Source: an uncultured Actinomycetota bacterium (lineage in GTDB: Bacteria > Actinomycetota > Humimicrobiia > Humimicrobiales > Humimicrobiaceae). From it: DNA of 64,000 nt. A program made the translations under genes and the position numbers. The stretch spans positions 15,061 to 79,060 of the forward strand of contig CAZTUA010000053.1 of the NCBI GenBank assembly GCA_964616545.1, written 5' to 3'. Each line of letters opens with the position of its first letter. The stretch's first letter is position 1. Below, one piece after another: positions 5,661-55,309 of this stretch. The notes under the pieces were generated by a model. The model ran no database searches and was not told where the DNA came from. It saw only the letters and a list, made by a program, of their open reading frames with translations.

Positions 5661-5674
5661 ACATTTTAAAAAAA

Positions 5675-9496: not shown

Positions 9497-9565
9497 TTAT
9501 CTATACTCCTGACTTTATCCTCTCTCCATTCTTTCTTTACTAATAACACCGGGCAACAGTACCGG

Positions 9566-11470: not shown

Positions 11471-11680
11471 AAAAACCTCCAGCTTTCTGTTAATTTCTCT
11501 TATATTAGATACATAAATAAAGGGTAATAAGTAAGTAAAAAAAAACCATTTTAATACCCATTACCCTTGCTTGCCTGAATATAAATTATTTTCCAATAAT
11601 GTTTATGGTAATTTTAATATTTATTATCAAATATTATACCATATTTCCCCCGAAATTTGACTAAAACAGGGTGATAAATT

Positions 11681-11992
11681 TTAAAGATTTTGCCTGAATT
11701 TTATCCTTTTGACGGCATCTTCGCCAATAAAGGAGTTAATCCTTTCAACCAGCCGTGCAGACATCATATTAAGTTCATTCGCCCATGTAGAACTGGCTAC
11801 CGATACATATAAAGTATTTCTGCTTATCCTTTCAGGTTTTGTTTTTTTGCTTATTTCGCTACCTACTATTTCTTCCCAGTGGCTAAATATTTTAGAGGTT
11901 TTTAATCTTGAGCCAATATTTAAATCCTTTACCACATCATTTATTATGCTTCCTATATCCTTTATTTCTTTCATGTTTATATTATAATCCAT
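11681..11992 (-). CDS. DUF721 domain protein (RemB/YaaB-like, conserved between recF and gyrB)
   Basis: 103 aa; position between recF and gyrB is the conserved Firmicutes synteny; sequence WEEIVG..ISKKTKPERI..TLYVSVASSTWANEL matches DUF721. Confidence 0.75.
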   Translation of the reverse strand: MDYNINMKEIKDIGSIINDVVKDLNIGSRLKTSKIFSHWEEIVGSEISKKTKPERISRNTLYVSVASSTWANELNMMSARLVERINSFIGEDAVKRIKFRQNL

Positions 11993-12002
11993 CTACAGTG
12001 CT

Positions 12003-13187
12003 TTATAAATCCAGAACTGTAACCTTATTGTCTTTAACAAGCAGCCTGCTCCCGAATTCAAGATCAATCTTATCAAGATAGCTCATATTTGTAGTGGTTA
12101 CAAATGTCTGGAATTTATTCTTAACCGCTCTTACGAGTATTTTTTTTCTTTCTATGTCAAGCTCCGAAAACACATCATCCAGAAGAAGGACCGGGTCCCT
12201 TTTTATTTTTTTTCTCAATACATCCATTTCACAGAGTTTTAAACTTATTGAAGCAATTCTCTGCTGCCCCTGCGACCCGAAACATCTCACATTCTTCCCG
12301 CCAAGCAAAATTACAAAATCATCTCTGTGGGGTCCCACCCTTGTATTTTTATACTGCAGGTCCCTTTCAATGCTGTCTTTTAATTTACGGCCAAAAGTCT
12401 CTTCAAGGTTTTTAATCATTGAACTATCCCCGTCCCGGGCCTCTCTTTCAGTAAAGTCCAGAAGACTATCCGGCGCACTTTCCCTGTCCCAGCTGAAAAC
12501 ATAAAATATATCCGCGGAAGCTTCCTTAAAAAAACTTTTCATATAATTTTTGAATTCAGATTTTATTTCATTTATCAGCCTGAACCTTTTTTTCATGATA
12601 TCCGTTCCGTACTTTACCAGATTGTCATTCCACACTTCCAGGGATGAATTAATTCCTGTATCAATCTTTCCGCCGATGCTTTTAATGAGGCTGGTCCTGT
12701 GGGCAAGTATTTTCTGGTATTGCAGTCTCTGCCTGTAATAGCTCCTGTCGGTTTTTTCAAGCACGCCATCAAGAAAATTTCTCCTTTCAGACGGCCCGTA
12801 TTTTACAATCCTCATATCATCCGGAGAGAATATTACTGAAGGGAGCATTGATATAAAATCTGTTTTCTTCCTCCGGTTTATTTTATCCACTCTTATTCTT
12901 GTATTGTTGTCCTTACGTAGTTCTATCTCAATAAAATGCTCCAGCCCATCATTCTCCCCGGAGTCCACTATTGCCTTTATGAAGGAATAGCTGCTTGCCC
13001 AGTTAATAATTTCATCCTGGGTGTAAGTTCTGTGAGACCTGCCTGTGGACAGGTAATGTATGGATTCCAGCAGATTTGTCTTGCCATCTCCATTATTTCC
13101 AAGAATCAAAACGGTATTTTTATCAAAATTTAAATTGATATGATGGTAATTTCTGTAATTTTTTAATTCTAATTTTTTTAAATACAC
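12003..13187 (-). CDS. recF: DNA replication and repair protein RecF
   Basis: 394 aa; N-terminal Walker A GNNGDGKTNLLESI, SMC-like signature and Walker B LLLDDVFSELD. Confidence 0.9.
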   Translation of the reverse strand: MYLKKLELKNYRNYHHINLNFDKNTVLILGNNGDGKTNLLESIHYLSTGRSHRTYTQDEIINWASSYSFIKAIVDSGENDGLEHFIEIELRKDNNTRIRVDKINRRKKTDFISMLPSVIFSPDDMRIVKYGPSERRNFLDGVLEKTDRSYYRQRLQYQKILAHRTSLIKSIGGKIDTGINSSLEVWNDNLVKYGTDIMKKRFRLINEIKSEFKNYMKSFFKEASADIFYVFSWDRESAPDSLLDFTEREARDGDSSMIKNLEETFGRKLKDSIERDLQYKNTRVGPHRDDFVILLGGKNVRCFGSQGQQRIASISLKLCEMDVLRKKIKRDPVLLLDDVFSELDIERKKILVRAVKNKFQTFVTTTNMSYLDKIDLEFGSRLLVKDNKVTVLDL

Positions 13188-38493: not shown

Positions 38494-38610
38494 AAAGCTT
38501 TCGGTTAAACTTAAGCTGCTGCCTGATTTTAGCAGCCATATTCTTTTTATCCATTTTTTCTGATAAAATTTTTAAACTGCTTTCTGTTAAAAAAGTAAAA
38601 AGGAGTAATT

Positions 38611-39414
38611 ATTTTCATACCCGTATTAAAAACAAAAAAAACTTTTTTTTTATACACATTAATAGCCTTACTTCTTTTATGCGCAATTACTTACGCTATT
38701 ATTTCAATCATTCGCACAGACACCGGCAGCAATTACGGCCAGCTTGTTATCAATAAAAGTTCTTATTCCAGCCCCGGAATTATGAAAGACTTAAATAATC
38801 CCGGAAGAAGTATAATATCCCTGAATTTAAAATCTGGTAGTGGTAAAACTGATATCACCAGAGTAAATCTACTGCTTGATAAAACCCTGGATGAATCATG
38901 TGAAAAAATTTATCTCGGCCAAGAAGAATCCTCACTGGGTATAGCAGGGTTTCAGGAATCAACATCAAGACCTGCTGTATATTCAGAAAGTTCCGCTGCT
39001 GAAGAAAGCCGGAACCTGAATCCAGACAATATGGAAACACAGCTCCTTTTTTATATCAACAACATCAGAACCAGGAATGGTCTTTGTGCGCTGGGTTCAA
39101 ACCAGACCCTTGTAAATATTGCAGATTCAAGATGCAGGGATATGCTCAGCAGAAATTATTTTAACCACGTAACTCCTGAAGGTAAAAATATATTTAACAT
39201 ACTTCAAGAAAACAGGGTTATGTATGCCTCTGCAGGTGAAAACCTGTACGGGTGCTCTCCGCCGTCAGCTGGACCTGTGGAGGTTATAATAAGTACCTGG
39301 CTGGGCAGCGGCGGCCACAGAGAAAATTTATTTAACCCGCATTATACCCGGGTGGGAATAAAGATAGTTGACGGAGAAAATAGAAGAGTGGTCACTGCGA
39401 TATTTTTAAATTAA
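38611..39414 (+). CDS. Secreted CAP/SCP-domain protein (YkwD-like); likely non-canonical ATT start
   Basis: CAP domain motifs (NYFNHVTPEGK, GENLYGC); first ATG is at 38782 but the in-frame region upstream (open from 38599) encodes a classic signal peptide KTKKTFFLYTLIALLLLCAITYA with no ATG/GTG/TTG; AGGAG + 5 nt + ATT at 38611. Confidence 0.6.
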   Translation: MFIPVLKTKKTFFLYTLIALLLLCAITYAIISIIRTDTGSNYGQLVINKSSYSSPGIMKDLNNPGRSIISLNLKSGSGKTDITRVNLLLDKTLDESCEKIYLGQEESSLGIAGFQESTSRPAVYSESSAAEESRNLNPDNMETQLLFYINNIRTRNGLCALGSNQTLVNIADSRCRDMLSRNYFNHVTPEGKNIFNILQENRVMYASAGENLYGCSPPSAGPVEVIISTWLGSGGHRENLFNPHYTRVGIKIVDGENRRVVTAIFLN

Positions 39415-39453
39415 TTTTTTATAGCTCTGATTAAATAAGTACACATACAACTT

Positions 39454-39897
39454 CTATAGTTTGCTATCCTGCTTTTTTGATTCCTGAGACATTATAAGGA
39501 AGGCAATTAAAATTATTACTATGTTTGCTGGTATTTGAAAAAGCCACATCATATATATATTTCCGAAAGAAGTTAAATACCCCTGAGTAATATAGTGGAG
39601 AGGGACAAATATCACCGGCAGCCAGGCAAAAGAAAATATAAGAATTAACAAAAATTCCAGCCATCCCTGAGGAAATAATTTTGTAATATTTTTATATTTT
39701 AAAATTACTATCCAGGATGTAAAAATTATAACGGAAAAAACTACTGCAATAGGAACCTGGATAGCAAGCTGGTTATACTGTATAAAGTAATGATAAACTC
39801 CAAAACCGAAGACAATTGAAGCTACATTTACTATTGCAAGAATAAAGCTGTGTAAAATTACTTTAAAAACTCTCATAAACTTCCGGGTTAATAGCAT
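39454..39897 (-). CDS. Hypothetical membrane protein
   Basis: 147 aa, four hydrophobic helices; no recognised domain. Confidence 0.3.
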   Translation of the reverse strand: MLLTRKFMRVFKVILHSFILAIVNVASIVFGFGVYHYFIQYNQLAIQVPIAVVFSVIIFTSWIVILKYKNITKLFPQGWLEFLLILIFSFAWLPVIFVPLHYITQGYLTSFGNIYMMWLFQIPANIVIILIAFLIMSQESKKQDSKL

Positions 39898-40161
39898 TTC
39901 AGCTGTATTTTAATAAGTAATTATATTCCATTTAAATCCAAATACCAATTAGTAATTGTATTCAGTTGCACGTACCGTATAATATGTATATGAATTGCTG
40001 CACAATCAAAAGCAAAGGGTTTCAGGTTTACATCAGGAATATAAAATCCAGATTTATAAATGTTTTCGTTTTATTTTTTTTGTGAATAATTTATAATTTG
40101 TTTTGTTTTACTAAAATTATAATCACTTTTTGCTATTGTAAATTCAAATTTACTATAATTT

Positions 40162-41799
40162 ATGTATTATAAATTAGTTATAGAAGTACTGGGTGGATTA
40201 GCACTTTTTATTTTTGGCATTAATAGACTCAGTAGCAGTCTTCAGAAAGTTACTTCCAACAAATTAAAATCAGTCATAAATACACTTACAAAAAGATCCT
40301 GGACAACAGTTCTTGTAGGTATGTTTACAACCATGCTTATACAGAGCAGCAGCGCCACCTCAGTAATGACTGTTGGTTTTGTAAATGCAGGGCTGATAAC
40401 CTTAAGACACGCAATTGGAATAATAATGGGCGCAAATATCGGTACTACAGTAACTGCTCAAATAGTATCCTTTAAAATAGATATACTTGCATTCCCACTG
40501 ATAATCATAGGGTTCCTTATTCACTTTTTAAGCAAGAGAAGAAGAATTAAAAATATTGGAATGACAATAATCGGGCTGGGAATTTTATTTCTTGGTATGA
40601 CCGTCATGAAATCAGCGCTTGAGCCTTTAAGGGATAACGAGGGTTTTAAAAGCTTCCTTTTGCTTTTCAGCAAAAATCCATTTCTTGGTATTTTAGCAGG
40701 GCTTTTTTTAACCACCCTGCTGCAAAGCAGTTCGGCTACAATCGGGCTTCTAATAGCCCTTGCAGCCCAGGGCCTTATTCCCATTGAAGCTGCAATACCA
40801 ATTCTTATAGGAGATAATATCGGTACCTGTTCTACTGCATTAATATCAAGCATAGGAACAACTGTTACGGCCAAAAGAACTGCCTTCTCTCATCTTATGT
40901 TTAATATCTTTGGTACAATAATCTTTGTCACTCTTTTATACGGCTTCAAACTGCAGCCTGCAATTGTAAGATTAACGGGTACAAGCGTACCTCACCAGAT
41001 TGCCAATATTCATACCTCCTTTAACATACTCACTACCATAATACTTTTCCCGATGATTGGTTTATTTGAGAAAGTTGTCTTAAAATTAATTCCCGGCAAA
41101 GATATTACGGTGCACAAGAATGCTTTACATCTGGACGGCAGATTAATCAGCACTCCCGCATTATCACTTGAACAGACAAACAAGGAATTATTAAGAATAA
41201 CCAAAATTGACAAGACAATGCTTAACCTTGCATTTGAGCGATTACAGAATAAGGAAGTTTTAATTGAAAAAAAATTACTTGATAGAGAAGCTGCCGTTGA
41301 CAGTATTACGGAGGATATAATAAGGTATCTTACCAAAATATCTCAAAAGTCCCTTGGCTTAAGGCTATCAAATAAACTTACAAACCTGCTTCATGTTGCC
41401 TATGATGCAGAAAGAGCCGGAGACCATGCAGAAAGCATACTCTATCTTATACTTGTAAAAGACGAAAATAATATTTCTTTCAGCAAAGCTGCCCTTGAAC
41501 AACTTGAGCTGGCACATAATAAGGTTGACCATCTTTACGACATACTTATATCAGGAATGGAAAACAACAACTTAAAAAAGCTCAAACAGTGTGAGAAAAT
41601 TGAATCCGAAATAGACCTCCTTGTTAAAGAAACCCGAACCGACCATTTGAAGAGGCTTCAGAACGGTGACTGCGTTCCGCTTTCTGGAGTAGTTTTTTCA
41701 GATATCATTATGCATCTTGAAAGAATAGGAGATCTGCTTTACGGTATATCAAGAAATCTCCTGAATATTAAAGAATACAAGATAGGCCAGAATAGATGA
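40162..41799 (+). CDS. Na+/phosphate cotransporter family protein (NptA/YjbB-like) with C-terminal PhoU-like repeats
   Basis: 545 aa; duplicated QSSSAT motifs of Na/Pi cotransporter II-like proteins; C-terminal PhoU-like helical domain. Confidence 0.8.
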   Translation: MYYKLVIEVLGGLALFIFGINRLSSSLQKVTSNKLKSVINTLTKRSWTTVLVGMFTTMLIQSSSATSVMTVGFVNAGLITLRHAIGIIMGANIGTTVTAQIVSFKIDILAFPLIIIGFLIHFLSKRRRIKNIGMTIIGLGILFLGMTVMKSALEPLRDNEGFKSFLLLFSKNPFLGILAGLFLTTLLQSSSATIGLLIALAAQGLIPIEAAIPILIGDNIGTCSTALISSIGTTVTAKRTAFSHLMFNIFGTIIFVTLLYGFKLQPAIVRLTGTSVPHQIANIHTSFNILTTIILFPMIGLFEKVVLKLIPGKDITVHKNALHLDGRLISTPALSLEQTNKELLRITKIDKTMLNLAFERLQNKEVLIEKKLLDREAAVDSITEDIIRYLTKISQKSLGLRLSNKLTNLLHVAYDAERAGDHAESILYLILVKDENNISFSKAALEQLELAHNKVDHLYDILISGMENNNLKKLKQCEKIESEIDLLVKETRTDHLKRLQNGDCVPLSGVVFSDIIMHLERIGDLLYGISRNLLNIKEYKIGQNR

Positions 41800-42467
41800 G
41801 AAAAGCATTCTACGATAAGATTGATGAAATTTCAAAAGATGTTTTATCGATGAGTACGCTTGTGCAGGAGGCGGTATCAAATGCAGTAAGAGCCCTGCTT
41901 GAGGCAGATACTGATACGGCACAAAAAGTAATAGACAATGACCAAAAAATAAATGATTATGAAATTTTAATTGAAGAAAAATGCGTAGTGCTTCAGGCAG
42001 AGCATCAGCCGGTTGCGGCAGACCTGAGATATCTGCATTCCATAAGCAATATAATAATACATCTTGAGAGAATCGGTGACCTTTCCGTTAATATTGCCCG
42101 AATTGCTAAAAATCTTTCCGGATTAACAATACAATACCTGGATGCAGAAATGAAAAAACTTCTGCTGGAAATGTTTAACCTTGTAAAGCCCGTGCTTGAT
42201 AAAGCTATTTCTGCTTTTAAAGAAAATGACCTCAAACTGGCTTCTGGAATTGATAAGATAGACAATGCCGTAGACGATATTCAAAAAACTATTATTAAGA
42301 AATTATACTGCTCCGTATTTAACAAAAAAGATAATATAAAAATTATTGCAGACCTGTCTCTTGTGGCAAGATATCTTGAAAGAATTGGAGATCACTCCGT
42401 AAGTATCGGGGAAAGAGTTCAATATTACCAGACTGGCGACTACAGCGTCTTTCACAGTGACGCTTAG
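41796..42467 (+). CDS. phoU: Phosphate signalling protein PhoU (paralog 1)
   Basis: 223 aa; two PhoU repeats with ERIGD motifs; 4-bp overlap with Na/Pi transporter gene. Confidence 0.85.
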   Translation: MRKAFYDKIDEISKDVLSMSTLVQEAVSNAVRALLEADTDTAQKVIDNDQKINDYEILIEEKCVVLQAEHQPVAADLRYLHSISNIIIHLERIGDLSVNIARIAKNLSGLTIQYLDAEMKKLLLEMFNLVKPVLDKAISAFKENDLKLASGIDKIDNAVDDIQKTIIKKLYCSVFNKKDNIKIIADLSLVARYLERIGDHSVSIGERVQYYQTGDYSVFHSDA

Positions 42468-42499
42468 AAATTTTTACAGAAACTTCTAAAATATTATAC

Positions 42500-43393
42500 T
42501 CAAAAACATTCACCATCCCTTAATCTGCAGAACTCACTTTCATATTCAACTTCTATTGTAGAATGTTCAAGCCCGAGGGGGTTTATAATTTCTCTTACTT
42601 TTCTTTTTATGCCGTTTATCTCTTCTGCGGCTGTACCATCTTTTATTACGATATGGGTGGACAGTACATTATTTAAGCTGTCCATAGACCAGACATGTGT
42701 GTGGTGTATACTTACAACATTTTCTATTTTTAGAATTTCTTCTTCAATTTTTTTTATACTTATCCCTTCCGGTACCGCCTGCAGAAAGACAGAAAAAGTC
42801 TTTTTTAAATTAATAATCACCCTGTATAAAATATAAATTGTAATCAATATTGATAATACCGGGTCCAGTATTGGAATGCTTTTGAAAATCATTATGATGC
42901 TTATAATAAGAATCGCCGCCCAGCCCAGAACGTCTTCAAAAAGATGCAGAGCTACGATTTTTTCATTTAATGATTTTCCCCGTCTGACTCTTAACGCAGC
43001 AACCCCATTTACTATAATACCGACTATCGCAAAAAGCACCATTCCTTTTGCATCCGGCTGCTCTGGATTGAACAGCCTGGGTACAGCTTTTGATAATATG
43101 TAAACTGAACCTGTAATTAATATCAAACTGTTTATCAGTGCTGCAAACAAAGAATATCTCCTGTAACCATAAGAATATTTCTCATCCTTTTTCTTCCCTG
43201 AATATTTTTCCAGAATCCACGATAATCCCAGGGAGAAACTGTCTCCCAGGTCATGCAGAGCATCGGATATAATAGCCATGCTGTTAGTCCAGAGTCCACC
43301 TACAATTTCAAAAATAACAAACCCGAGGTTTAAAAAGAATGCTAATTTTATATTTTTGATATTTTCCTGCTTATTACTATTAATATGCACCAT
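42500..43393 (-). CDS. Cation diffusion facilitator family transporter (CzcD-like)
   Basis: 297 aa; six TM helices with HDLGDS motif and C-terminal cytoplasmic domain. Confidence 0.85.
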   Translation of the reverse strand: MVHINSNKQENIKNIKLAFFLNLGFVIFEIVGGLWTNSMAIISDALHDLGDSFSLGLSWILEKYSGKKKDEKYSYGYRRYSLFAALINSLILITGSVYILSKAVPRLFNPEQPDAKGMVLFAIVGIIVNGVAALRVRRGKSLNEKIVALHLFEDVLGWAAILIISIIMIFKSIPILDPVLSILITIYILYRVIINLKKTFSVFLQAVPEGISIKKIEEEILKIENVVSIHHTHVWSMDSLNNVLSTHIVIKDGTAAEEINGIKRKVREIINPLGLEHSTIEVEYESEFCRLRDGECF

Positions 43394-43490
43394 TATATTC
43401 TTATTTATTTTTTAATTTTTTATATATAAATTCAAAATATGTCTATTCTTAATCCTGGAAGTATCCTATAAATGCATATATTTATACCTT

Positions 43491-43907
43491 TTAAAGGAGC
43501 CTTTTTTCTCCCTTAATTTCTTTAATATCCGTAATATCCTGGGTAACTTCCAGGCATCCTCTGTAATTATCCCTGTTGTCATAAATCGGGAAATACCTGA
43601 TATAAACAAAGCGGTTATCCAGGTTAATCCAGAATTCAGCCACTTCTCTTTTTTTTGCCCTGAAATCATCAAGTATTTTCTGTACTTTATCAATGCTTTT
43701 TTTGGGATGGCAATTCTGAACTTTTAAACCAATTACAGAAGTTGACCTTTTAAATATCCTGCTTTCCGGTTTATTAAAATACCTTACTTCGTCATTCTCT
43801 CCAACAAATGTTATATCAACCGGTATTGTTTCCAGTATAAGTCCAGCCTCTTCAGCGTTTATCTTCCCTGTTTTAAATTCCAGAATCTTTTCGCTGCCCT
43901 TATTCAT
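43491..43907 (-). CDS. DUF438 domain protein
   Basis: 138 aa; blocks PVDITFVGENDEVRYF, VIGLKVQNCHP, VAEFWI, RYFPIYDNRDNYRGCLEVTQDITDIKEIKGEKRLL match the DUF438 family. Confidence 0.5.
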   Translation of the reverse strand: MNKGSEKILEFKTGKINAEEAGLILETIPVDITFVGENDEVRYFNKPESRIFKRSTSVIGLKVQNCHPKKSIDKVQKILDDFRAKKREVAEFWINLDNRFVYIRYFPIYDNRDNYRGCLEVTQDITDIKEIKGEKRLL

Positions 43908-44331
43908 AATATACCTCCTGTAATTTATAAGTTTTTTAAAAAATTCCTCCCTGAATTATTCTTCCTTAAAATCCTTCGCTTTCGATTGGCGGATTTTATT
44001 TTAAGCACATAACTTAAATATATAATCCTTTTTTAAAAAAATAAACAAAATTTATAATCATTTATCATCGCTATTTTATAAATTAATATATATTTTAATT
44101 AATTATAATACTAATATATACATTACTATATATATCTTTTTATTACATCTTGTATCAATATATTTAATAATTAATTTAAATTAAAAATTTTATAAATTTC
44201 TATTGACATTTGTTTTTATATAGTGTATTTTAAACCCGTTAAATTCTTTTAGTTGTGAATGTAAAAAAATTAGATGCTATGAAGTTTTCCTTAAATTTGG
44301 ACGCTTGAGGGAAATGGAGCAAATAGCGTAA

Positions 44332-44357
44332 CCGGCTAATTTAGCCGGTTTTTTTTA
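44332..44357 (+). terminator. Rho-independent terminator closing a short leader/sRNA upstream of the GGDEF-HD-GYP gene
   Basis: CCGGCTAA-T-TTAGCCGG stem (GC-rich core) followed by TTTTTTTT; no plus-strand CDS upstream of it. Confidence 0.6.
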
Positions 44358-44448
44358 TTTCATATAAGAATAAATGACCGGCAAATTGATAAGATAATCT
44401 TAAAATATAATAGAGATATAATTATCATTTTATAGCAGGTTATTTAAA

Positions 44449-46527
44449 ATGTTCTGGCAAAATATAAACTTTTTTATTCCTCTTATTTCTGTAGTTGCTC
44501 TGGCTGTCCTTGGCACCTTTTATATATGGATATACAGAAAAGGAGTCCAGGATATTGCAGGTATCGGGATAATGGTTCTTTCTATTATCTGGATAATGGC
44601 ATATATACTCCAGCAGAGTATAGCACCAGATCATTTAAAAGTGCTTTTTGATAAGATTCAATACACCGGTGTCTTTCTTTTACCGGTTGGACTATTCCTT
44701 ATTGCAGCCGGCTACAGCAATTGCAAAAAAATCTTTAAACCAAAATATATCCTTCTTATCAGTGCATTTCCTGTTATTGCCATCTTTCTTGCCTTTACGA
44801 ATGAAATCCACAGGCTTGTCTGGGCTAATGCAAGTCTTGTTTTATTCGATTCTTTTAGTCTTGTAGTTAAAGAATATAATACCCTGTATTTTATTTCGGT
44901 TCTGTATTCAAGTATCCTGACACTTGCCGGTATAACAATAATAATTACAGACATCGTAAAATCATACAGGAAACCTGACGGACAGAGCCGCTGGAAAAAA
45001 TTTCTTCTTATTCCATATGTATCCATCTCCTGGCTAATAATACTGGCAAAATATCTTGGCTTTAATCCCTTCCCCTACGTAGAGGAGACACCCATAGTAA
45101 CTGTAATTTTCACTCTTGCAATCATTGCAGTACTAAATAAAACACGGATAAGAGAGATAATGCCTGTTGCCTTTGAAACTATTTTTGAAAATATGGATGA
45201 CGGTCTTATACTTGTTGACGGAAAAGAAAATGTTTTAAAACTGAACCCGGCCTCCCTGAAAATATTTAAAACTCAATTCAATGAGATAGCCGGTAAACCA
45301 GTCAACCATCTATTAACAGACCAGGGTGAAAATACAGATATTTTCCTGGGGAATAAAGATTTAAAAATAGGAAATAATGGAAGTCAGTGCTTTTACAATA
45401 CAAAGCAGACAGAGATGAAAAGTGATAAAGGAAAACCCCTCGGCAAAGTAATAGTATTAAGAGATATAACAGAAATAAGAAAAGCAGAAGAGGATATAAA
45501 ATACCTCAGTTTTTACGATAAATTAACCGGTGTTTACAACCGGGCATTCTTTGATATTGAACTAAAAAGACTTAATGCCAGCCGCCAGATGCCGTTAAGT
45601 CTGGTAATAGGAGACGTAAACGGATTAAAATTAACTAATGATGCTTTCGGGCATGCATATGGAGATGAGCTTCTTAAAAAAATTGCGGATATACTTAAAT
45701 CATGTTTCAGAAAAGAAGATATCATAGCCAGGTGGGGTGGAGATGAATTTAGTATTTTAATGCCCAATACATCTTATTCGGCTACCATGCAGATTGTGAA
45801 CCGGGTTCATAAAAAATGCAAAGAATTAAGCACGGATACTATGGTGATAAGTATATCAACAGGGATTGCAACCAAAGAAAGAACCCGCGGGAGCACGGAT
45901 GTATTATTAAAAGAAGCAGAAGACAGAATGTACAAACACAAGCTTATGGAGAATCAGAGTATCCGCAGCTCTATAATAGCTTCACTTGGAAAAGCTCTTG
46001 AAGAAAAAGATTATGAAACAGAAGAGCATACCAGAAGAATGAAAAAATATAGTTTACTCTTTGGCCAGTTGCTTAAACTCCAGGATTCCAGGCTGGATGA
46101 ATTGAGCCTTCTGTCTAAGTTACATGATATTGGAAAAATAGGCATACCCGATAATATTATTTTAAAACCAGGAAAACTTAATAAAAATGAGTGGAAAATT
46201 ATGAGCAAGCATTCAGAAATCGGTTACAGAATAGCACTGTCCACTCCAGATCTCGCTCACATAGCAAAGTCTATTCTTCATCATCACGAAAGGTGGGATG
46301 GAAGTGGTTATCCTTACGGCCTGTCTGAATTTGAAATCCCGATAGCTTCAAGAATAATATCTATTATTGACGCATACGATGCCATGGTAAATGACAGACC
46401 CTATAGAAAAGCTATGACAAGAGAAGCCGCCATAGAAGAATTAAATAAATGCAGGGGCACACAATTTGATCCTGCTCTTGTAGATGTTTTTATGAATAAA
46501 TTACTCTTAAAAGAATGCGTAAGCTGA
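44449..46527 (+). CDS. Membrane sensor with 7TM N-terminal domain, PAS-like region, GGDEF diguanylate cyclase and HD-GYP phosphodiesterase domains
   Basis: 692 aa; GGDEF motif in context RWGGDEFSIL with upstream YDKLTGVYNR; HD-GYP motifs HD(IGK) and HHERWDGSGYP. Confidence 0.85.
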   Translation: MFWQNINFFIPLISVVALAVLGTFYIWIYRKGVQDIAGIGIMVLSIIWIMAYILQQSIAPDHLKVLFDKIQYTGVFLLPVGLFLIAAGYSNCKKIFKPKYILLISAFPVIAIFLAFTNEIHRLVWANASLVLFDSFSLVVKEYNTLYFISVLYSSILTLAGITIIITDIVKSYRKPDGQSRWKKFLLIPYVSISWLIILAKYLGFNPFPYVEETPIVTVIFTLAIIAVLNKTRIREIMPVAFETIFENMDDGLILVDGKENVLKLNPASLKIFKTQFNEIAGKPVNHLLTDQGENTDIFLGNKDLKIGNNGSQCFYNTKQTEMKSDKGKPLGKVIVLRDITEIRKAEEDIKYLSFYDKLTGVYNRAFFDIELKRLNASRQMPLSLVIGDVNGLKLTNDAFGHAYGDELLKKIADILKSCFRKEDIIARWGGDEFSILMPNTSYSATMQIVNRVHKKCKELSTDTMVISISTGIATKERTRGSTDVLLKEAEDRMYKHKLMENQSIRSSIIASLGKALEEKDYETEEHTRRMKKYSLLFGQLLKLQDSRLDELSLLSKLHDIGKIGIPDNIILKPGKLNKNEWKIMSKHSEIGYRIALSTPDLAHIAKSILHHHERWDGSGYPYGLSEFEIPIASRIISIIDAYDAMVNDRPYRKAMTREAAIEELNKCRGTQFDPALVDVFMNKLLLKECVS

Positions 46528-46587
46528 TTGATTTTATATTATATATTCTGAGTCGATATTTTTTAGTTAGAAGAAGGTTAAATCATT

Positions 46588-48753: not shown

Positions 48754-48808
48754 CTATAAATTCAAAATTTTTTCAATCAATTCCATCACACTGGTTAATC
48801 ATGAAGAA

Positions 48809-49762
48809 TCAACTTTTTTCCCTGTTCTTCATGAAACTGTTTCTATAAAGATAATCATTTGCACTCATATCTACCCTGACATCCCTAACCAGGTTTCTAA
48901 AATCTTCTGAAAGTTTTACCATCTCATTCTTTGCAGAATCTGCATGTCCTGATAACGCTACTCTCCCGAATTCAGAATCAATTAAATTTTTTAATTTTCT
49001 TTTTAAAAAAAATGCAGGTATAAATTTCATTATTTTAAATTTTTCTGGCAGTATCTTTACTCCTATCTCTTCCAATGCTTTTAGATTTTCCCTGAAAGCC
49101 TTAATTCCTTTTGTTATTAATCTATCCTCATCTGTGATTTTTTTATTTCTATTTTTCGCTGCGTAACTCGCCATTACCAGCGCACATATAAACGCAGCAT
49201 GGGTTTTTAACCAGGCATCAATATTTTCTGGAATATCAACTTTAATCTGTGAATCCTGAAAAACACTTTTAATCATCTCTACACGACTGCTAATTGACCC
49301 ATCAGGTTCACCAAAATATAAAATAGTGTGGTCTTTTACGTAAGCAGCAATAACAGAGTGCCCTTCACGGTATCCACCGGGACCTCCAAAACCCAGCATG
49401 ACTCTATCTCTATCAAGAAACTTCAGATATTCTTCGGCTCCATTCACATTGTTGCCCATAAAAATAAAGAAAGGAATTTTTCTATTTCTCTTTAAAACCG
49501 GCAGTATCTCGCTTACCTGCTGCCGCTGCATTATTATTAAAGCAACATCATAATAATCATCCGGTTTTAATTCATCTGTAGTTTTAATATCAGTTTCAAA
49601 CCGCTCATTAAGTATTACATCCTTAATGATAACTCCGTACTTTTTTAACTGTTCAAGCCTCCTGCCTCTCGCCAGAACTGTAACATCATTCCCACCATTT
49701 TTAAGCTTATATGCAAAAATGCTGCCAATTACCCCGGCTCCATAAATTAAAATTTTTATAAT
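48809..49762 (-). CDS. panE: 2-dehydropantoate 2-reductase (ketopantoate reductase, ApbA/PanE family); likely non-canonical ATT/ATA start
   Basis: ORF track only detects the C-terminal 240 aa (first ATG); the same frame is open to 49798 and encodes the Rossmann N-terminus (I)IKILIYGAGVIGSIFAYKL with no ATG/GTG/TTG; GAGGAG + 5 nt + ATT (49760-49762) or + 8 nt + ATA. Confidence 0.7.
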   Translation of the reverse strand: MIKILIYGAGVIGSIFAYKLKNGGNDVTVLARGRRLEQLKKYGVIIKDVILNERFETDIKTTDELKPDDYYDVALIIMQRQQVSEILPVLKRNRKIPFFIFMGNNVNGAEEYLKFLDRDRVMLGFGGPGGYREGHSVIAAYVKDHTILYFGEPDGSISSRVEMIKSVFQDSQIKVDIPENIDAWLKTHAAFICALVMASYAAKNRNKKITDEDRLITKGIKAFRENLKALEEIGVKILPEKFKIMKFIPAFFLKRKLKNLIDSEFGRVALSGHADSAKNEMVKLSEDFRNLVRDVRVDMSANDYLYRNSFMKNREKS

Positions 49763-49906
49763 TTTAACTCCTCTATAATTAATATATGTTAGGTCTGCCT
49801 AACATTATATTATAAATATAAAATTTTTCAACTACATATATGGTTTTTTAAAATTAATTATTAAGGTCTGGATTGCCGAGCGTCTTGAAAAAGTTTCATA
49901 AAGCAC

Positions 49907-49980
49907 TGGCTGGGGAGGGAGGATTTGAACCTCCGATCACGGGACCAAAACCCGTTGCCTTACCTCTTGGCTACTCCCCA
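49907..49980 (-). tRNA. tRNA-Gln (anticodon TTG)
   Basis: rc reads TGGGGAGTAGCCAAGAGGTAAGGCAACGGGTTTTGGTCCCGTGATCGGAGGTTCAAATCCTCCCTCCCCAGCCA; Gln-type D-arm, anticodon loop TTTTGGT, encoded CCA. Confidence 0.85.
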
Positions 49981-50093
49981 ATAAGGCTAATAAATTTTAT
50001 ATCAGAAACAGCCAAAATTCAAACCTCTAAGGCATATTATTTTAAAATTTTTGATTATGACTCTTAATGTTTCCGGAAACTCATCCGCAAACA

Positions 50094-51011
50094 TTAACCA
50101 TGAATTGTCAGACTACTGGGTGTTGTATGAGTCAGGAAGACTTTTGAAGATGCAGGCCTCAGTCCTTTGTATACACATGTTGCAGTTTTCAAGTCATCAC
50201 AGAAAGCAAAGACAGTCGGACCGCTCCCTGTCATCTGGGAGGCAATTGCTCCCAGTCTGTTGGCCTTTTCTTTGATTATTAATATCTCTTTATCTTCAAT
50301 TGTTACAACTCTTTCAAGGTCATTCTGTAATTTTTTAAAGAAATTACTAAAATCTCTTTCAATTATATTGTTTGCCAGTTCTGTGTGTATTGGCTTTTGT
50401 TCTTCCCCCACAAGATCAAACTTCCCATAAATATCCCGGGATAAAAACTTACCTCCATTTGTAGCCAGTATTATCCAGTAAAAGGGTAGATGCGGTAGTT
50501 CTGAAAGCTTTTCTCCTCTGCCTTCAGCCAGGATTGTTCCGCCTCTTATGCAGAAAGGAACATCAGAACCCACCTTCCCCGCAATATTCATTAAATCAGA
50601 TATTTCCATGTTTAATTCAAACAGTTCGTTCAATGCAACCAGCGTAGCGGCAGCATTTGTACTGCCCCCCGCAAGCCCTGCGCATACAGGAATATGCTTT
50701 TCTATATTAATTTTTACAGAATATCTGCTCCTTAAATCATCCTTATCCAGAATAAGCGCCGCTGCCTTATGAACCAGATTTTTCTCATCAAGCGGAATAT
50801 CTTCATTGTTGCAGGTAATATAAATTCCATTTCTATCCATTGTTTTGGAGATATCATTTTTCTTTTCTATTTCAAAGGTAAGCTCATCAGAAAGGCTTAT
50901 ACTCTGCATAATGGATTTTATTTCATGATAGCCGTCTGTTCTGCCATTTTTTGCAACATTTAGATAAAGATTTATTTTGCCTGAAGCTCTTAATTTTATA
51001 AATTTTCTCAT
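50094..51011 (-). CDS. ispE: 4-diphosphocytidyl-2-C-methyl-D-erythritol kinase
   Basis: 305 aa; GHMP kinase fold, N-terminus KINLYLNV..R.DGYHEI and PxGxGLGGGSTNAA motif. Confidence 0.85.
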   Translation of the reverse strand: MRKFIKLRASGKINLYLNVAKNGRTDGYHEIKSIMQSISLSDELTFEIEKKNDISKTMDRNGIYITCNNEDIPLDEKNLVHKAAALILDKDDLRSRYSVKINIEKHIPVCAGLAGGSTNAAATLVALNELFELNMEISDLMNIAGKVGSDVPFCIRGGTILAEGRGEKLSELPHLPFYWIILATNGGKFLSRDIYGKFDLVGEEQKPIHTELANNIIERDFSNFFKKLQNDLERVVTIEDKEILIIKEKANRLGAIASQMTGSGPTVFAFCDDLKTATCVYKGLRPASSKVFLTHTTPSSLTIHG

Positions 51012-51047
51012 TATTATTCCGCTCTATGATAGCATATTTGCCTTATA

Positions 51048-51926
51048 TTAGATATTCAGTTTTTTATACAGGTAAATATAATCATCAAGAGATAGCTCCT
51101 CTGCTCTTACATCCTTTTTTTTATTAATTCCGGTTAGCAATTTTAATATTAATTCTATTTTATCGCAATATCTACTATCTCTGCCGGACAATGAATTTAC
51201 CATTTTTTTTCTTCTGTGTAAAAAACAGCCATTTATGAAATCAAAAAAATTCCTTATATCAAAATCAGGGCTCCCGGCAAGTTTATTTTCCTTTCTATTC
51301 ACTTCTATAACAACCGAATCCACAAAAGGTTTTGGAATAAAACAGTTCCGTGATATCCCGAAACAATATTTAAATGAGGCAAGGAATTGTGCTTTTATAG
51401 TATAAGAGCTGTAATTTTTATCTCCGGGTGATGCCAGCAGCCTTTCGGCAATGTCTTTCTGGATGGTCAGGAACATTTCTTTTATACTCTTTGCTTCAAG
51501 AAGAATCTTCAGCAAAAGTGTCGCAGCAATGCTATAGGGCAGATTTGATACCACCTTGCTTATCCCGTATCTGGCTGCAACATCTTCGTAATCCAGCTTC
51601 ATTGCATCAGTATGTATTAATTCTATTTTTGGCTTTTTCTCCATTTTTACACCGAATATATCTTTAAATGCTTTAATAAGTGATTTATCTATCTCAACAC
51701 ATACAACTCTCTTTGCGGCTGCAAGTATAATTTCGGTAAGACTGCCTATACCGCTTCCTATCTCCAGAATAATATCATTAGAACCAACTCCTGCACACTT
51801 TATTATCTTTTTAGCGCTGTTGGTATCAATCAGAAAATTCTGACCGAGCCTTTTTTTAAGCCTTATATCATATTCACTTAAAATTCTGGCAGTATTTCCC
51901 GGAGAGCTTATGTAATTTGAATGCAT
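51048..51926 (-). CDS. rsmA: 16S rRNA (adenine1518/1519-N6)-dimethyltransferase RsmA/KsgA
   Basis: 292 aa; LGQNFLID and EIGSGIGSLT SAM-binding motifs. Confidence 0.9.
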   Translation of the reverse strand: MHSNYISSPGNTARILSEYDIRLKKRLGQNFLIDTNSAKKIIKCAGVGSNDIILEIGSGIGSLTEIILAAAKRVVCVEIDKSLIKAFKDIFGVKMEKKPKIELIHTDAMKLDYEDVAARYGISKVVSNLPYSIAATLLLKILLEAKSIKEMFLTIQKDIAERLLASPGDKNYSSYTIKAQFLASFKYCFGISRNCFIPKPFVDSVVIEVNRKENKLAGSPDFDIRNFFDFINGCFLHRRKKMVNSLSGRDSRYCDKIELILKLLTGINKKKDVRAEELSLDDYIYLYKKLNI

Positions 51927-51941
51927 TTTATAAAATTTATT

Positions 51942-52760
51942 TTATTTTAAAGAAAAGAATTCTTCCGCATTTTTTGAAGTAATATCTGCAATTTCATCAA
52001 TGCTTAGATTTTTAATCTCTGCAATCTTTTCAGCAACATATTTAACAAAACCAGGATAATTTTCCCTGCCCCTTTTCGCCTGAGGGGCCAGAAACGGTGA
52101 ATCAGTTTCTATAAATATCCTCTCAAGAGGGACTTTTTCAACTACCTTAATTAAATCGCGGGCATTGGGGAAAGTAATTACACCCGTAAATGAAATATAC
52201 AACCCCAGTTCAAGACATTGCCTGGCAAAATTGATGTCTCCGGAAAAACAATGCACAACAGCTCTAAAATTTTTTTTACCTGCATATTTTTTTACAGCAT
52301 CAAGAGTTTCCCTGTGGGCATCCCTATCATGAATTATTACCGGTATATTATATTTTAAAGCCATCTCTATCTGGGAGATAAATGCTTTCTCCATGTCTTT
52401 TTTTGGACTCAAATTTCTGTAAAAGTCAAAACCTGTCTCACCTATTGCCACGACTCTTTCATATTTTTTATCTTTGCTGCCATCGCTATTTGTCAGGCCT
52501 CCAGATTCCCCCTGTACCAGTGACTCAAGTATTTTTACTTCTCTGTCTCCAAAGTCTTTAACATAGTGGGGGTGAATTCCGACACTTGCAAAAACATTTG
52601 CAAACCTTCCGGCAAATTCTACTGATTTTCTGCTGCCTTCGAGACTTGAGCCTACATTTATTATATACCTTACGCCTTCGCTTTCTGATTGTGCCACCGC
52701 CTCTTCCGGGGTTAATTTCTTTAGCATATCTATATGGGCATGAGTATCTATAAAATACAT
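51942..52760 (-). CDS. tatD: TatD-family metal-dependent DNase/hydrolase (YabD-like)
   Basis: 272 aa; N-terminal FIDTHAHID and internal HCFSG motifs; conserved position next to metG. Confidence 0.85.
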   Translation of the reverse strand: MYFIDTHAHIDMLKKLTPEEAVAQSESEGVRYIINVGSSLEGSRKSVEFAGRFANVFASVGIHPHYVKDFGDREVKILESLVQGESGGLTNSDGSKDKKYERVVAIGETGFDFYRNLSPKKDMEKAFISQIEMALKYNIPVIIHDRDAHRETLDAVKKYAGKKNFRAVVHCFSGDINFARQCLELGLYISFTGVITFPNARDLIKVVEKVPLERIFIETDSPFLAPQAKRGRENYPGFVKYVAEKIAEIKNLSIDEIADITSKNAEEFFSLK

Positions 52761-52821
52761 GTTCTTATCCTTAAGGTTCTTATTTTAGAATAGTGATTAC
52801 CTGTTTTATTTAATTACTGAA

Positions 52822-54360
52822 CTACTTATTTTCATTTATCCTGGGGAAAAGTATCTCTCTGCGGCCAACTTTTGTTCCGCCTTCAAATTTACCCCACTCG
52901 CCATCTTGTTTAATAGCTATTTCTTCAATACTCTTATTTATGCCAATCTGGGTAAAAATCTTCTGGCATGTTGAAGGCATAAAAGGCACCAGCAAAATAG
53001 CAGACAGCCTTATTATCTCTACTGCTTCATAGAGCACTGCATCAAGTTTTTTACGGTTCTCTTCATTTTCATTTTTTACAAGGTTCCAGGGCTGGCTATC
53101 TTCAATATGCTTGTTGGCCATATTTATAAATTCCCAGACTTTTATAAGATAATCCGGGAATTTGAAATCGCTCATATATCCGGCGGCCTCTTTTTTTATC
53201 TCGCACCATTTTTCCTTGAAAACCGGATTTAAAGTTCTGGCAGGTATTACACCATCCCGGTATTTTTCTATCATTGCAAGGGTTCTGGAAACGAGATTAC
53301 CTATATCATTGCTCAGGTCTGAATTATACCTTCTAATAAAAGCGTCATCTGTAAAAGAACCATCCTGCCCGAATGAAATTTCGCGGGTAAGGAAATATCT
53401 TATACCGTCTACACCATATTTTTCTAACATATCATCCGGGTCAAGGGTAATGCCCTTGGATTTTGACAATTTTTCCTCCCCCATTAAAAGCCAGCCATGC
53501 ACCACAATATGTTCGGGAAGCTCTATGCCAAGCGACATCAATATAGCCGGCCAGATTATGGCATGAAACTTTAATATATCCTTTCCTATATGGTGCTGGT
53601 TGGCAGGCCAGTAGCGCTTGAATAGCTCATCTTGTCCCGAGCTGTAACCAAGAGCAGAAATATAATTTATCAGAGCATCCACCCACACATAGCAATAGTG
53701 GCCCGGGTCAAAAGGTATGGGCACTCCCCATTTGACTGCTGTTCTTGAAATGCTGATATCCTTAAGTCCCTGTTTTAGAATTCCCATCACTTCGTTTTTT
53801 CTGGTTTCCGGGATAATAAAGCCGGGGTTATCTTCAATATGTTTTATTATTTTTTCTTCATATTTAGATAATTTGAAGAAATAATTTTCTTCTTTTACAT
53901 TCTCTACATCCCTCCTGCAGTCCGGACACTTACCATCTATAAGCTGGGAGTCCGTAAAAAATGTTTCGCAGGGTACGCAATATTTTCCTTCGTAAACACT
54001 TTTATAGAGGTCGTCATTATCTTTTAGTTTTGCAAGTATCTTCTGGACTATTGTCTCATGATTCTTTTCTGTTGTTCTTATGTATAAATCATTGCTGATG
54101 TTATATAACTTTAAAAGCCTTTTCATGTCATCAGTCATAATGTCAACATATGCCTGTGGAGACATTCCTTTTTCCTGCGCGCTTTTATTTATTTTCTGCC
54201 CGTGTTCATCGGCACCTGTTAAAAAAAGAGTATCCCTTCCTGATAATCTGTGGAAACGTGCCACAACATCTGTCAGTATAAATTCATATACCTGTCCCAG
54301 ATGGAGTTTTGCATTCATATACGGGATTGCGGTTGTGATATAAAATTTTTCCTTATTCAA
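52822..54360 (-). CDS. metG: Methionine--tRNA ligase (short form without C-terminal tRNA-binding domain)
   Basis: 512 aa; class I HLGQ (HIGH-type) and KLSKS (KMSKS) motifs, zinc knuckle CPDC. Confidence 0.9.
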   Translation of the reverse strand: MNKEKFYITTAIPYMNAKLHLGQVYEFILTDVVARFHRLSGRDTLFLTGADEHGQKINKSAQEKGMSPQAYVDIMTDDMKRLLKLYNISNDLYIRTTEKNHETIVQKILAKLKDNDDLYKSVYEGKYCVPCETFFTDSQLIDGKCPDCRRDVENVKEENYFFKLSKYEEKIIKHIEDNPGFIIPETRKNEVMGILKQGLKDISISRTAVKWGVPIPFDPGHYCYVWVDALINYISALGYSSGQDELFKRYWPANQHHIGKDILKFHAIIWPAILMSLGIELPEHIVVHGWLLMGEEKLSKSKGITLDPDDMLEKYGVDGIRYFLTREISFGQDGSFTDDAFIRRYNSDLSNDIGNLVSRTLAMIEKYRDGVIPARTLNPVFKEKWCEIKKEAAGYMSDFKFPDYLIKVWEFINMANKHIEDSQPWNLVKNENEENRKKLDAVLYEAVEIIRLSAILLVPFMPSTCQKIFTQIGINKSIEEIAIKQDGEWGKFEGGTKVGRREILFPRINENK

Positions 54361-54450
54361 TTTAAACCTCTGTAAATACTTTCTTTTTAATTTTTAATTT
54401 TATTATTCTTTTAATAGTTTTCTATTATTTTACCGGATTGAAATATCATC

Positions 54451-55281
54451 TTAAATTTTTGTTGAAATATTATACAATCTTTGCTTATCTATGTCATACC
54501 TTGACTGTATTATCTTAAGGGCATTTTTTTTGACAATACCCTCTTTTAACAAACGGATTATTTCATTTGCTATATCTTCATCGGTGAAATTCTTTATAAG
54601 TTCCTTTCTGTACCCTTCAACAACAAGGACTATCTCTCCCTTTACTTTTTTGGCTCTTATCCGTCCCAGGATGTTGCTTAAATTTCCTCTAATTGCTTCC
54701 TCGTATATTTTTGAAATTTCCCTTACAAGGGCTGCTCTCCTGTCTCCGGATATCTCAATAATTTCAGAAATTAATTTCTCAATCCTTGCAGGTGATTCAT
54801 AAAAGATTAGAGTATATGGCAGCAGAGCAAGTTCCCGGAGCTTATTTTTTCTTTTAGATTTTCCCTTTGGGAGGAAGCCGGCAAATACAAAATTATCGGT
54901 GGGGAGTCCCGATAGGACAATGGCGCTTATCGCAGCATTGGGCCCCGGTATTATCGTAAGTGGAATATCATTTTTTATGCACTCTTTTATGATTTTAAAC
55001 CCCGGGTCCTGAACTGCCGGTACCCCGGATTCTGATACAAAAGCAACGTTTTTCCCTGCATCAAGCTCGCCTATTATATAGCCAATTCTTCTCTCTCTAT
55101 TATGATCGTTATAGCTTATTATATCTTTTTTTAGAATACTGTACCTCAGGAGCAGTTTCTTTATTGTCCTGGTATCTTCTGCAACAATTAAATCAGCTTC
55201 CTTCAGTGTCCGTACAAGCCTGAAACTTGCATCCTCAAGGTTTCCGATTGGAGTTGCACATATGTAAAAAGTACCGCTAAT
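54451..55281 (-). CDS. rsmI: 16S rRNA (cytidine1402-2'-O)-methyltransferase RsmI; apparent ATT start, no in-frame ATG/GTG/TTG
   Basis: Not in ORF track. Minus-strand frame open from 55314 to stop at 54451-54453 translates (M)ISGTFYICATPIGNLEDASFRLVRTLKEADLIVAEDTRTIKKLLL...GKNVAFVSESGVPAVQDPGF...LVRELTKIYEE..., a full-length TP-methylase fold (TPIGNLED block matches RsmI) in the conserved position upstream of metG; start assigned to ATT 55279-55281 preceded by GGGG + 5 nt. Confidence 0.7.
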   Translation of the reverse strand: MSGTFYICATPIGNLEDASFRLVRTLKEADLIVAEDTRTIKKLLLRYSILKKDIISYNDHNRERRIGYIIGELDAGKNVAFVSESGVPAVQDPGFKIIKECIKNDIPLTIIPGPNAAISAIVLSGLPTDNFVFAGFLPKGKSKRKNKLRELALLPYTLIFYESPARIEKLISEIIEISGDRRAALVREISKIYEEAIRGNLSNILGRIRAKKVKGEIVLVVEGYRKELIKNFTDEDIANEIIRLLKEGIVKKNALKIIQSRYDIDKQRLYNISTKI

Positions 55282-55309
55282 TTTTACCCCGCAATAATGG
55301 TCTCTATTT

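Follow-up and report, generated by a model that had tools for sequence, protein, structure and literature searches.

Translation from codons other than ATG, GTG and TTG is a known, rare kind of initiation in bacteria. Two non-canonical starts are confirmed for E. coli, the AUU codons of infC and pcnB, and the codons AUA, AUC, AUU and CUG were found to initiate in this organism at 1–2% of the level of AUG (bioRxiv 10.1101/063800). In both genes the AUU stands behind a Shine-Dalgarno (SD) sequence as the sole and inefficient start of a conserved protein, and the AUU of infC is conserved in evolution. Four non-canonical starts have been mapped in S. aureus by initiation-site profiling, and conserved AUU/AUA starts with extended SDs reach about 10% of AUG there (bioRxiv 10.1101/2025.06.19.660503). 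Such near-cognate start sites are subject to proofreading by initiation factor 3 (IF3) (PMC2831307; bioRxiv 10.1101/2025.06.19.660503). The stretch of DNA described here, called the window below, comprises 64,000 nucleotides (nt) from an uncultured Actinomycetota bacterium of the Humimicrobiaceae (assembly GCA_964616545.1, contig CAZTUA010000053.1). It carries three genes that lack a canonical start codon at their conserved N-terminus: rsmI, a gene for a PanE/ApbA-like oxidoreductase (PanE-like below), and a gene for a protein with a CAP domain. We consider it very probable that all three are functional and are translated from near-cognate AUH codons, namely AUU for two of them, rsmI and the CAP gene; the PanE-like gene would use AUA or the AUU beside it.

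Near-cognate initiation of this kind is not a new mechanism; it is its frequency in this organism that is unusual. Compared with infC and pcnB of E. coli, other genes are concerned, about three of 77 genes are affected as against two per genome, and feedback on the genes of the window would be a conjecture. The starts of S. aureus, cvfC1 (AUU), ccpN (AUA), citZ (AUA) and infC (AUA), are alike in their low-GC (guanine plus cytosine), Gram-positive-type setting, in their strong SDs close to the start and in their conservation, and the citZ start is a lineage-specific change like that of the PanE-like gene. However, in S. aureus the starts were located by retapamulin ribosome profiling and quantified by means of reporters, whereas those in the window are known by comparison only. 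New here are the ATT starts of rsmI and the CAP gene, conserved in a clade of uncultured Actinomycetota of low GC, together with the local density of such starts and a documented failure of gene calling.

Conserved N-termini upstream of the first canonical start

The stop-to-stop reading frames of the window, whose GC content is 37.5%, were surveyed, and 58 long, non-overlapping open reading frames (ORFs) were retained. The first ATG, GTG or TTG lies 61, 89 and 254 codons into the frame in the CAP gene, the PanE-like gene and rsmI, respectively; in the other 55 of the 58 ORFs it lies at most 30 codons in. These three are also the only ones among the 58 in which a conserved N-terminus is encoded far upstream of the first canonical start. 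Between the upstream stop and the conserved N-terminus none of the three has an in-frame ATG, GTG or TTG, and no ATG hidden by an indel, as the earlier note had suggested looking for, exists at any of the three loci. All three ORFs are intact over 267–317 codons despite the low GC content, and the domain models TIGR00096 and PF02558 reach to residues 4–5 of the proposed RsmI and PanE-like proteins.

Each of the three genes has an ATT placed 5 nt after an SD-like run of G (GGGG in rsmI, GAGGAG in the PanE-like gene, AAGGAG in the CAP gene), and a rereading of the window sequence found all three sites where the earlier note had put them. The same spacing from SD to start is seen in ATG genes of the window, for example at 37178, 55810 and 58370. 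The string GGAG-N5-ATT occurs only 23 times in the 64 kb on both strands, so that chance does not account for its standing precisely where homology places the N-terminus of two genes. Taken together, the set displays coding sequence upstream of the canonical starts, the lack of a canonical alternative, a regular SD distance, conservation of the codon and the SD, and purifying selection.

The missing start codons could have been a product of sequencing error, a reading by which the earlier note said its claim would fall. The locus is, however, 100% identical in JGI metagenome 3300001335 (contig ML8_10000160) and in the Logan assembly SRR1179181, 99.99% identical in JGI 3300077562, and carried by further samples too. 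Since independent assemblies are identical or nearly so, the absent start codons are not an assembly error. Public gene calls on the same contigs have a gap at rsmI and give the PanE-like protein as 240 amino acids (aa) and the CAP protein as 210 aa, and in the protein collection the CAP and PanE-like proteins of this organism are present as truncated calls only, including those under the NCBI source. Prodigal-type callers skip rsmI and shorten the other two genes because the canonical starts are missing. The alternative that the earlier note had held against ATT initiation, that standard callers truncate or miss genes here, is therefore true as a consequence of the ATT/ATA starts and is no rival to them.

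The three proposed start sites and their relatives

The gene rsmI (54451–55281, minus strand) encodes a 16S rRNA (cytidine1402-2'-O)-methyltransferase of 276 aa. The protein scores 215 bits with the equivalog model TIGR00096 against a cut-off of 167.9, with residues 5–273 on positions 2–271 of the 275 in the model; it contains the TPIGN motif, and the alignment with its orthologues begins at residue 1. The frame is open from a TAA at 55317–55315 to a TAA at 54453–54451, and its 5' region reads GGGG (55290–55287), taaaa, ATT (55281–55279), followed by SGTFYICATPIGNLED. The earlier note held that the frame contains no ATG, GTG or TTG. This is right for ATG and GTG, but two TTGs are present, at 54552 and 54477; they are codons 254 and 279 of the 287-codon open frame and, lying near its 3' end, cannot be starts. 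A frameshift fusion of rsmI with the rubrerythrin gene upstream was also considered and is unlikely, since that neighbour is not kept in every relative.

A scan of GTDB species genomes gave five close relatives of this gene (loci L004–L008, titled uncultured Actinomycetota, 34–38% GC), whose RsmI proteins are 66–84% identical in amino acids to that of the window. The ATT behind a GGAGG-type SD is kept in six of eight relatives (L005, L006, L007, L008, L154 and L155), always in the same alignment column, which supports the ATT at 55279–55281 as the initiator that had been proposed; the GGGG of the window (55287–55290) aligns with the GGAGG or GGAGGG of the relatives. The ATT lies 4–5 nt after GGAGG or GGGGG in L005–L008, and L005–L007 have no canonical start upstream of the TPIGN motif. 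An in-frame canonical start is absent from six of the seven ATT-bearing sequences, counting the window and six relatives, the exception being L008 with an in-frame TTG that has no SD of its own. L004 has ATA in the ATT column and an ATG five codons upstream, within the stretch that is homologous to the SD of the others. About 75 more distant rsmI loci from other phyla have ATG throughout. A protein search with RsmI brought up many members of the clade; calls with a truncated N-terminus account for 16 of the 120 best clusters, and other clusters begin with ATG, GTG or TTG 4–5 codons upstream ('MEGKIKGT', 'LTGGNIKGT'), at the 5' edge of the GGAGG.

The ATT has in fact already been annotated as the rsmI start in two NCBI records of metagenome-assembled genomes (MAGs), GCA_034660395.1 (JAYEJA010000054.1) and GCA_004376325.1 (SOKC01000126.1), with the same gene, codon position and SD plus ATT, and with a 276-aa product written 'MSG...'. 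These are the loci L154, with the DNA ccGGAGGaaaaaa-ATT, and L155, with ttGGAGGGaaaag-ATT. They are automatic database entries that do not cover the CAP and PanE-like genes, and a literature search found no paper describing them. Pairwise ratios of nonsynonymous to synonymous divergence (dN/dS) for rsmI are 0.06–0.16 at a dS of 0.9–2.7, where synonymous divergence is saturated. This is the mark of purifying selection, and the gene is not the non-expressed pseudogene that the earlier note had named as a possible refutation. Because ATT makes up only 39% of the isoleucine codons in the window genome and synonymous sites are saturated, the retention of ATT at this position is not neutral. We argue from the retained ATT, the fixed SD spacing and the purifying selection that the ATT is the maintained initiation site of a functional gene.

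The CAP gene (38611–39414, plus strand) encodes a protein of 267 aa with an N-terminal hydrophobic segment. The protein scores 48.3 bits with PF00188 against a Pfam cut-off of 21.1, which makes it a CAP/SCP protein, and 78 bits with TIGR02909 (YkwD), below the cut-off of 171, so that it is YkwD-like only. An in-frame TAA (38596–38598) is followed by AAGGAG (38600–38605), taatt and the proposed ATT start (38611–38613); the first canonical start, ATG 38782, is 57 codons downstream of the ATT. The N-terminus consists of a lysine-rich stretch and then a hydrophobic segment of about 23 residues. The earlier note was correct that a start at ATG 38782 would delete this segment; its description as a signal peptide is broadened here, a membrane anchor being the other possibility. 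Orthologues with 49–60% identity share the hydrophobic region upstream of the first ATG of the window, and the methionine of that ATG aligns with lysine or asparagine in them.

The proposed CAP start is well kept. GGAG is found at the same spacing in all orthologous loci that were read at the DNA level. GGAG, 5 nt and ATT recur in eight of ten loci; the other two (L087 and L095) have ATA. Seven loci were read at the DNA level (L141–L147), and all have GGAG, 5 nt and ATT-TCy-ATA; three more orthologues were found beside PanE-like genes, L094 with ATT and L087 and L095 with ATA. No canonical start is present for 142 codons in L087, and L095 has an ATG nine codons downstream of its ATA. In the window, L144 and L147 an in-frame stop precedes the ATT by 4–5 codons. 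The neighbourhood is shared as well, with genes for an FAA hydrolase, LysE, the CAP protein, a Na/Pi cotransporter and a cation-efflux protein. The codons picked by gene callers in these loci are non-conserved TTGs. In L141/L142 the TTG is upstream of the ATT, in L145/L146 it comes two codons after it, and in L143, L144 and L147 it falls within the hydrophobic segment. The TTG chosen in L141/L142 falls within an element of the form TGRTAAAAT that is present in the window, L141/L142 and L145/L146; the seeming coding conservation further upstream of the gene is probably this element, an extended -10-like motif. The copy in the window, TGATAAAAT (38561–38569, plus strand), was read by eye from the aligned sequences and was not picked up by a consensus promoter scan. 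A terminator-like hairpin after the upstream LysE-family gene (38515–38536, plus strand) separates the CAP gene from the upstream transcription unit.

The third gene (48809–49762, minus strand) encodes a NAD(P)-binding oxidoreductase of 316–317 aa, depending on whether it starts at ATT 49762 or ATA 49759. The earlier note called it panE. This label does not hold, since the protein scores 70.7 bits with TIGR00745, below the cut-off of 141.35, and has no match to PF08546, the C-terminal ApbA domain; PF02558, the N-terminal ApbA/PanE domain, is the only one found, with 58 bits and model position 1 at residue 4. GAGGAG (49773–49768) is followed by ttaaa, ATT (49762–49760), ATA (49759–49757) and then KILIYGAGVIGS, so that the SD is 5 nt from the ATT and 8 nt from the ATA, as the earlier note had described. 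The first canonical start is ATG 49531, 77 codons downstream, and the claim that its use would delete the N-terminus of the Rossmann fold was well founded: 77 residues would be lost, including the GAGVIGS (GxGxxG) motif.

Close orthologues of the PanE-like protein (65–86% identity, about 310 aa) start with MKILIYGAGVIGS. Their DNA in L084–L100 has GGAG and, after 8 nt, an ATG in the context '...aATT ATG AAA ATA', where the window has 'ATT ATA AAA ATT'. The alignment of the window ATA (in the pair ATT-ATA, 49757–49762) with this ATG points to a lineage-specific G-to-A change of an ancestral ATG, and to the ATT as a piece of the ancestral 5' untranslated region, so that of the two options in the earlier note the second fits best. 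Either codon could serve, both being at a usable distance from the SD, and the sequence does not choose between them. The dN/dS against L084 and L085 is 0.09–0.10, and the truncated call is found on four contigs from several sources. Judged by these alignments, the answer to the earlier question of whether orthologues keep the ATT or replace it with ATG is divided: the near-cognate codon is conserved in rsmI and the CAP gene and not in the PanE-like gene, whose close relatives have ATG. The PanE-like and CAP genes were also sought by synteny in 80 rsmI loci, and neither was found there.

Upstream of the PanE-like gene a strong promoter-like site, TTGAAA-16-TATAAT (49804–49831, minus strand), with 11 of 12 consensus matches lies at a distance of 42 nt. 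The leader that it implies measures about 35 nt, and the transcript would not be leaderless; leaderless initiation is unlikely for both this and the CAP gene, given promoter-like elements some 35–45 nt upstream. Between the -10 element and the SD there is a 20-nt palindrome, ATGTTAGGCAGACCTAACAT (49786–49805), with perfect 8-bp arms (ATGTTAGG-CAGA-CCTAACAT). It is possibly an operator or a leader hairpin, which would add a layer of control to a weakly initiated gene.

More distant reductases of this type offer observations of their own. In a second clade of PanE-like genes (L101–L122, 29–33% GC) there is no canonical start in some members (for example L106 2477, L108 10001, L103 6657, L111 1902 and L112 5330); ATG-ATT-AAA alternates with ATT-ATT-AAA, with ATT or ATA as the possible start and GGTGA as the SD. 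One member is named Promethearchaeota, and a gene of the HVO_0163 type with a helix-turn-helix domain is nearby. An acetoacetyl-CoA (coenzyme A) synthetase-like gene (L116 590–2614) has ATC where its orthologues have ATG. These sequences suggest that near-cognate starts may also be used in probable Asgard archaea. A third, more distant group (L129, L131, L136 and L138, about 50% GC) has GGAGGT, 8–9 nt and ATA-AAA, and lacks a canonical start ahead of the GxGxxG motif. A CoA-transferase family III gene adjoining the PanE-like gene carries a 31-nt insert in three divergent metagenome contigs of about 30% GC (L108 11150–11180, L110 3661–3691 and L111 3404–3434). The site is identical in all three, between ...GAEVIKVE and PPPFGE...; the inserts differ in sequence, all end in CTATAA, and their excision restores the frame, which is uninterrupted in L109. 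A further interruption is present in L108 and L111, about 75 nt upstream of the insert. In these probable Asgard archaea the 31-nt inserts might represent mini-introns, sites of recoding or very small mobile inserts.

Frequency, rival readings and proposed mechanism

An extension of the same genome by about 18 kb brought no further ATT/ATA case, which gives about three of 77 genes; a fair estimate is that ATT/ATA starts serve roughly 1–4% of genes. Together with the comparative data on all three genes, this supports the suggestion of the earlier note that initiation at ATT (or ATA) is recurrent in this organism. Two screens were applied to the related loci. A simple one flagged ORFs of 200 codons or more whose first canonical start lies at least 40 codons in. 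The hits were 10 among 248 ORFs for the clade, 4 among 453 for the low-GC control loci and 25 among 286 for the high-GC ones, the last figure being high because frames stay open by chance at high GC. A screen for N-terminal homology was too lenient at a threshold of six codons, where it flagged 15–28% of ORFs everywhere including the controls, and only gaps of at least 15 codons, inspected by eye, were used. Its control hits were artefacts: out-of-frame conservation in high-GC genomes, domain fragments, and a probable TGA-interrupted peroxiredoxin-like gene. The last of these deserves a remark of its own. A conserved peroxiredoxin-like ORF fragment of about 110 codons stands directly after an in-frame stop ('TNQIPAYE...') in five Zixibacteria/Ignavibacteria contigs among the control loci (L022 14478–14807, L023 8290–8625, also L011, L034 and L049), and standard translation may here have split a selenocysteine (TGA) gene.

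Outside the three families, only two candidates emerged among about 200 ORFs of the relatives, to be counted as one or two uncertain cases. A gene for an S-adenosylmethionine (SAM)-dependent methyltransferase in L085/L086 (10975–11541, plus strand) has ATA where eight orthologues have ATG; 12 codons further downstream a conserved ATG could take its place. The other is a 330-codon ORF in L092 (3366–4358, minus strand) for a signal-peptide-bearing protein rich in Asn, Asp and Glu, with no ATG, GTG or TTG for 274 codons. It has ACG, 6 nt after AAGAGG, where its orthologues (window 46588, L084 and L085) have ATG, and an ATA three codons later; it comes from a single 5-kb contig and may be an error or a pseudogene. 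Three further ORFs were set aside or regarded as doubtful: L088 6977–7594 has a plausible ATG at codon 50, the DUF3048 gene of L097/L098 is truncated or frameshifted, and L088 416–1435 is a PKD fragment.

How else could the three genes be read? That the missing starts are sequencing or assembly errors, or that the genes are decaying and untranslated, may be thought of because the sequence comes from metagenome assemblies, because the ATG-to-ATA change in the PanE-like gene is lineage-specific, as expected for a first step of gene loss, and because the relative L154 has split genes elsewhere. Yet assemblies made independently from different samples repeat the same or nearly the same sequence, many species keep the ATT and SD, the ORFs are intact, and the dN/dS values of rsmI and the PanE-like gene are low, in rsmI among lineages that all lack a canonical start. 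We give error or decay next to no credence. Translation from the first downstream canonical codon, yielding the shortened CAP and PanE-like proteins, is the choice of the public gene calls, and nearly every member of the family keeps an internal methionine of the PanE-like protein (MQRQQ). It would leave rsmI with no such codon before codon 254 and the other two genes with ATGs (38782 and 49531) that have no SD, and it would cost the PanE-like protein its dinucleotide-binding motif and the CAP protein its export or anchor segment, although the residues upstream are conserved as protein in orthologues and the CAP ATG aligns with other amino acids. A start at these downstream codons is thus highly improbable.

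Two other readings accept the near-cognate starts and differ on why they are there. The ATT of rsmI could be an autoregulatory sensor like that of infC: ribosomes under-modified at C1402 would initiate better at AUU and so restore RsmI. Such a loop is attractive because in E. coli the modified nucleotide, m4Cm1402, touches the P-site codon at the phosphate of its third base, and loss of the N4-methyl group from m4Cm1402 raises AUU initiation 1.8-fold (PMC2831307), and the ATT is conserved across the clade at saturated synonymous divergence. But deletion of rsmI alone left AUU initiation unchanged in E. coli, the effect belonging to rsmH (PMC2831307); the roughly 75 rsmI genes of other phyla use ATG, and since the other two ATT/ATA genes are unconnected with the ribosome, a general tolerance of weak starts is the simpler account. 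We regard autoregulation as improbable. Start selection might instead be relaxed throughout the lineage, through an altered IF3, initiator tRNA or C1402 modification, with AUU and AUA as near-normal starts genome-wide. The density of cases, set beside two confirmed genes in E. coli and four in S. aureus, speaks for this, as do the further candidates in relatives (the SAM-dependent methyltransferase and the secreted protein of L092). On the other side, more than 90% of genes keep ATG, GTG or TTG, the cases outside the three ascertained families are few and uncertain, and no gene that would support an altered apparatus was found: infC, which the earlier note had wished to see checked, rsmH (both sought by tblastn with the E. 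coli proteins) and an initiator tRNA gave no hit in the window or the collected related loci. A lineage-wide relaxation is a possibility that we hold to be on the unlikely side.

Some observations sit less well with near-cognate initiation of functional genes, which we continue to prefer. In rsmI, L004, L008 and L156 have an in-frame ATG, TTG or GTG 4–5 codons upstream of the ATT or ATA, at the 5' edge of the SD-like element; a canonical start may be used in some lineages, and the run of G may be no more than Glu-Gly codons. The SD of the window rsmI (GGGGT) is also weaker than those of its relatives. For the PanE-like gene, reduced or lost expression is possible. The frequency estimate is based on about 82 kb of one genome, and the clade comparison carries an ascertainment bias, the loci having been fetched for carrying these three genes. 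Finally, we infer rather than observe that ribosomes initiate at ATT or ATA, as well as the efficiency, the dependence on IF3 and the reason for selection.

If near-cognate initiation is indeed what happens, it would probably proceed as follows. The helix between the SD (GGAG or GGAGG, 5 nt upstream) and the anti-SD would position the 30S subunit, and initiator fMet-tRNA, with its CAU anticodon, would pair with the first two bases of the codon, the mismatch at the third being tolerated. The products of the three genes would then begin with (formyl)methionine and not with isoleucine. Initiation of this kind, disfavoured by IF3, would be inefficient and set a low level of expression that may respond to IF3 activity. 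The weak codon of rsmI and the CAP gene is conserved across a clade of uncultured low-GC Actinomycetota, which argues that it is maintained and not accidental; the PanE-like gene, on the other hand, would have undergone a recent ATG-to-ATA down-mutation that was tolerated and fixed in this population.

Other features of the window and significance

A few features elsewhere in the window may be recorded. A tRNA-Ile(GAT) and tRNA-Ala(TGC) pair (5585–5751, minus strand) has the arrangement typical of a 16S–23S spacer, and no rRNA was detected anywhere in the window despite it. An origin-proximal set (7064–13187, minus strand) comprises a recF-like gene (SMC_N), DciA (PF05258), gyrB and gyrA; gyrB apparently starts at a TTG 4 nt after GGAGGT, and recF at a GTG. 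A cyclic-di-GMP-II riboswitch (RF01786; 44263–44346, plus strand) scores 68.8 bits against a gathering score of 53.5 and is located about 100 nt upstream of a gene for a 692-aa protein (44449–46527) with a seven-transmembrane sensor and PAS, GGDEF and HD domains.

The practical meaning of the three genes lies in annotation. Callers that accept only ATG, GTG and TTG drop a universally conserved ribosome-modification gene and cut cofactor-binding and export segments from two other proteins, and such losses distort completeness estimates, metabolic reconstructions and the protein-family databases built from MAGs of this kind. We would also entertain, as a doubtful combination, a whole class of uncultured low-GC Actinomycetota with regular AUU/AUA starts in about 1–5% of genes, with an rsmI AUU that couples P-site modification to start-codon stringency, and with a possible extension to the PanE-like homologues of probable Asgard archaea. 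Were this true, Prodigal-type annotation would systematically lose or truncate a part of the proteome.

For the biology of these bacteria, rsmI and the secreted or anchored CAP protein lengthen what has been a very short list of natural, conserved AUU starts, and the density of ATT/ATA starts is about 20–30 times that reported for E. coli or S. aureus. This raises the question of whether start-codon stringency may be relaxed in the clade, or whether the expression of rsmI may be tied to the fidelity of initiation.

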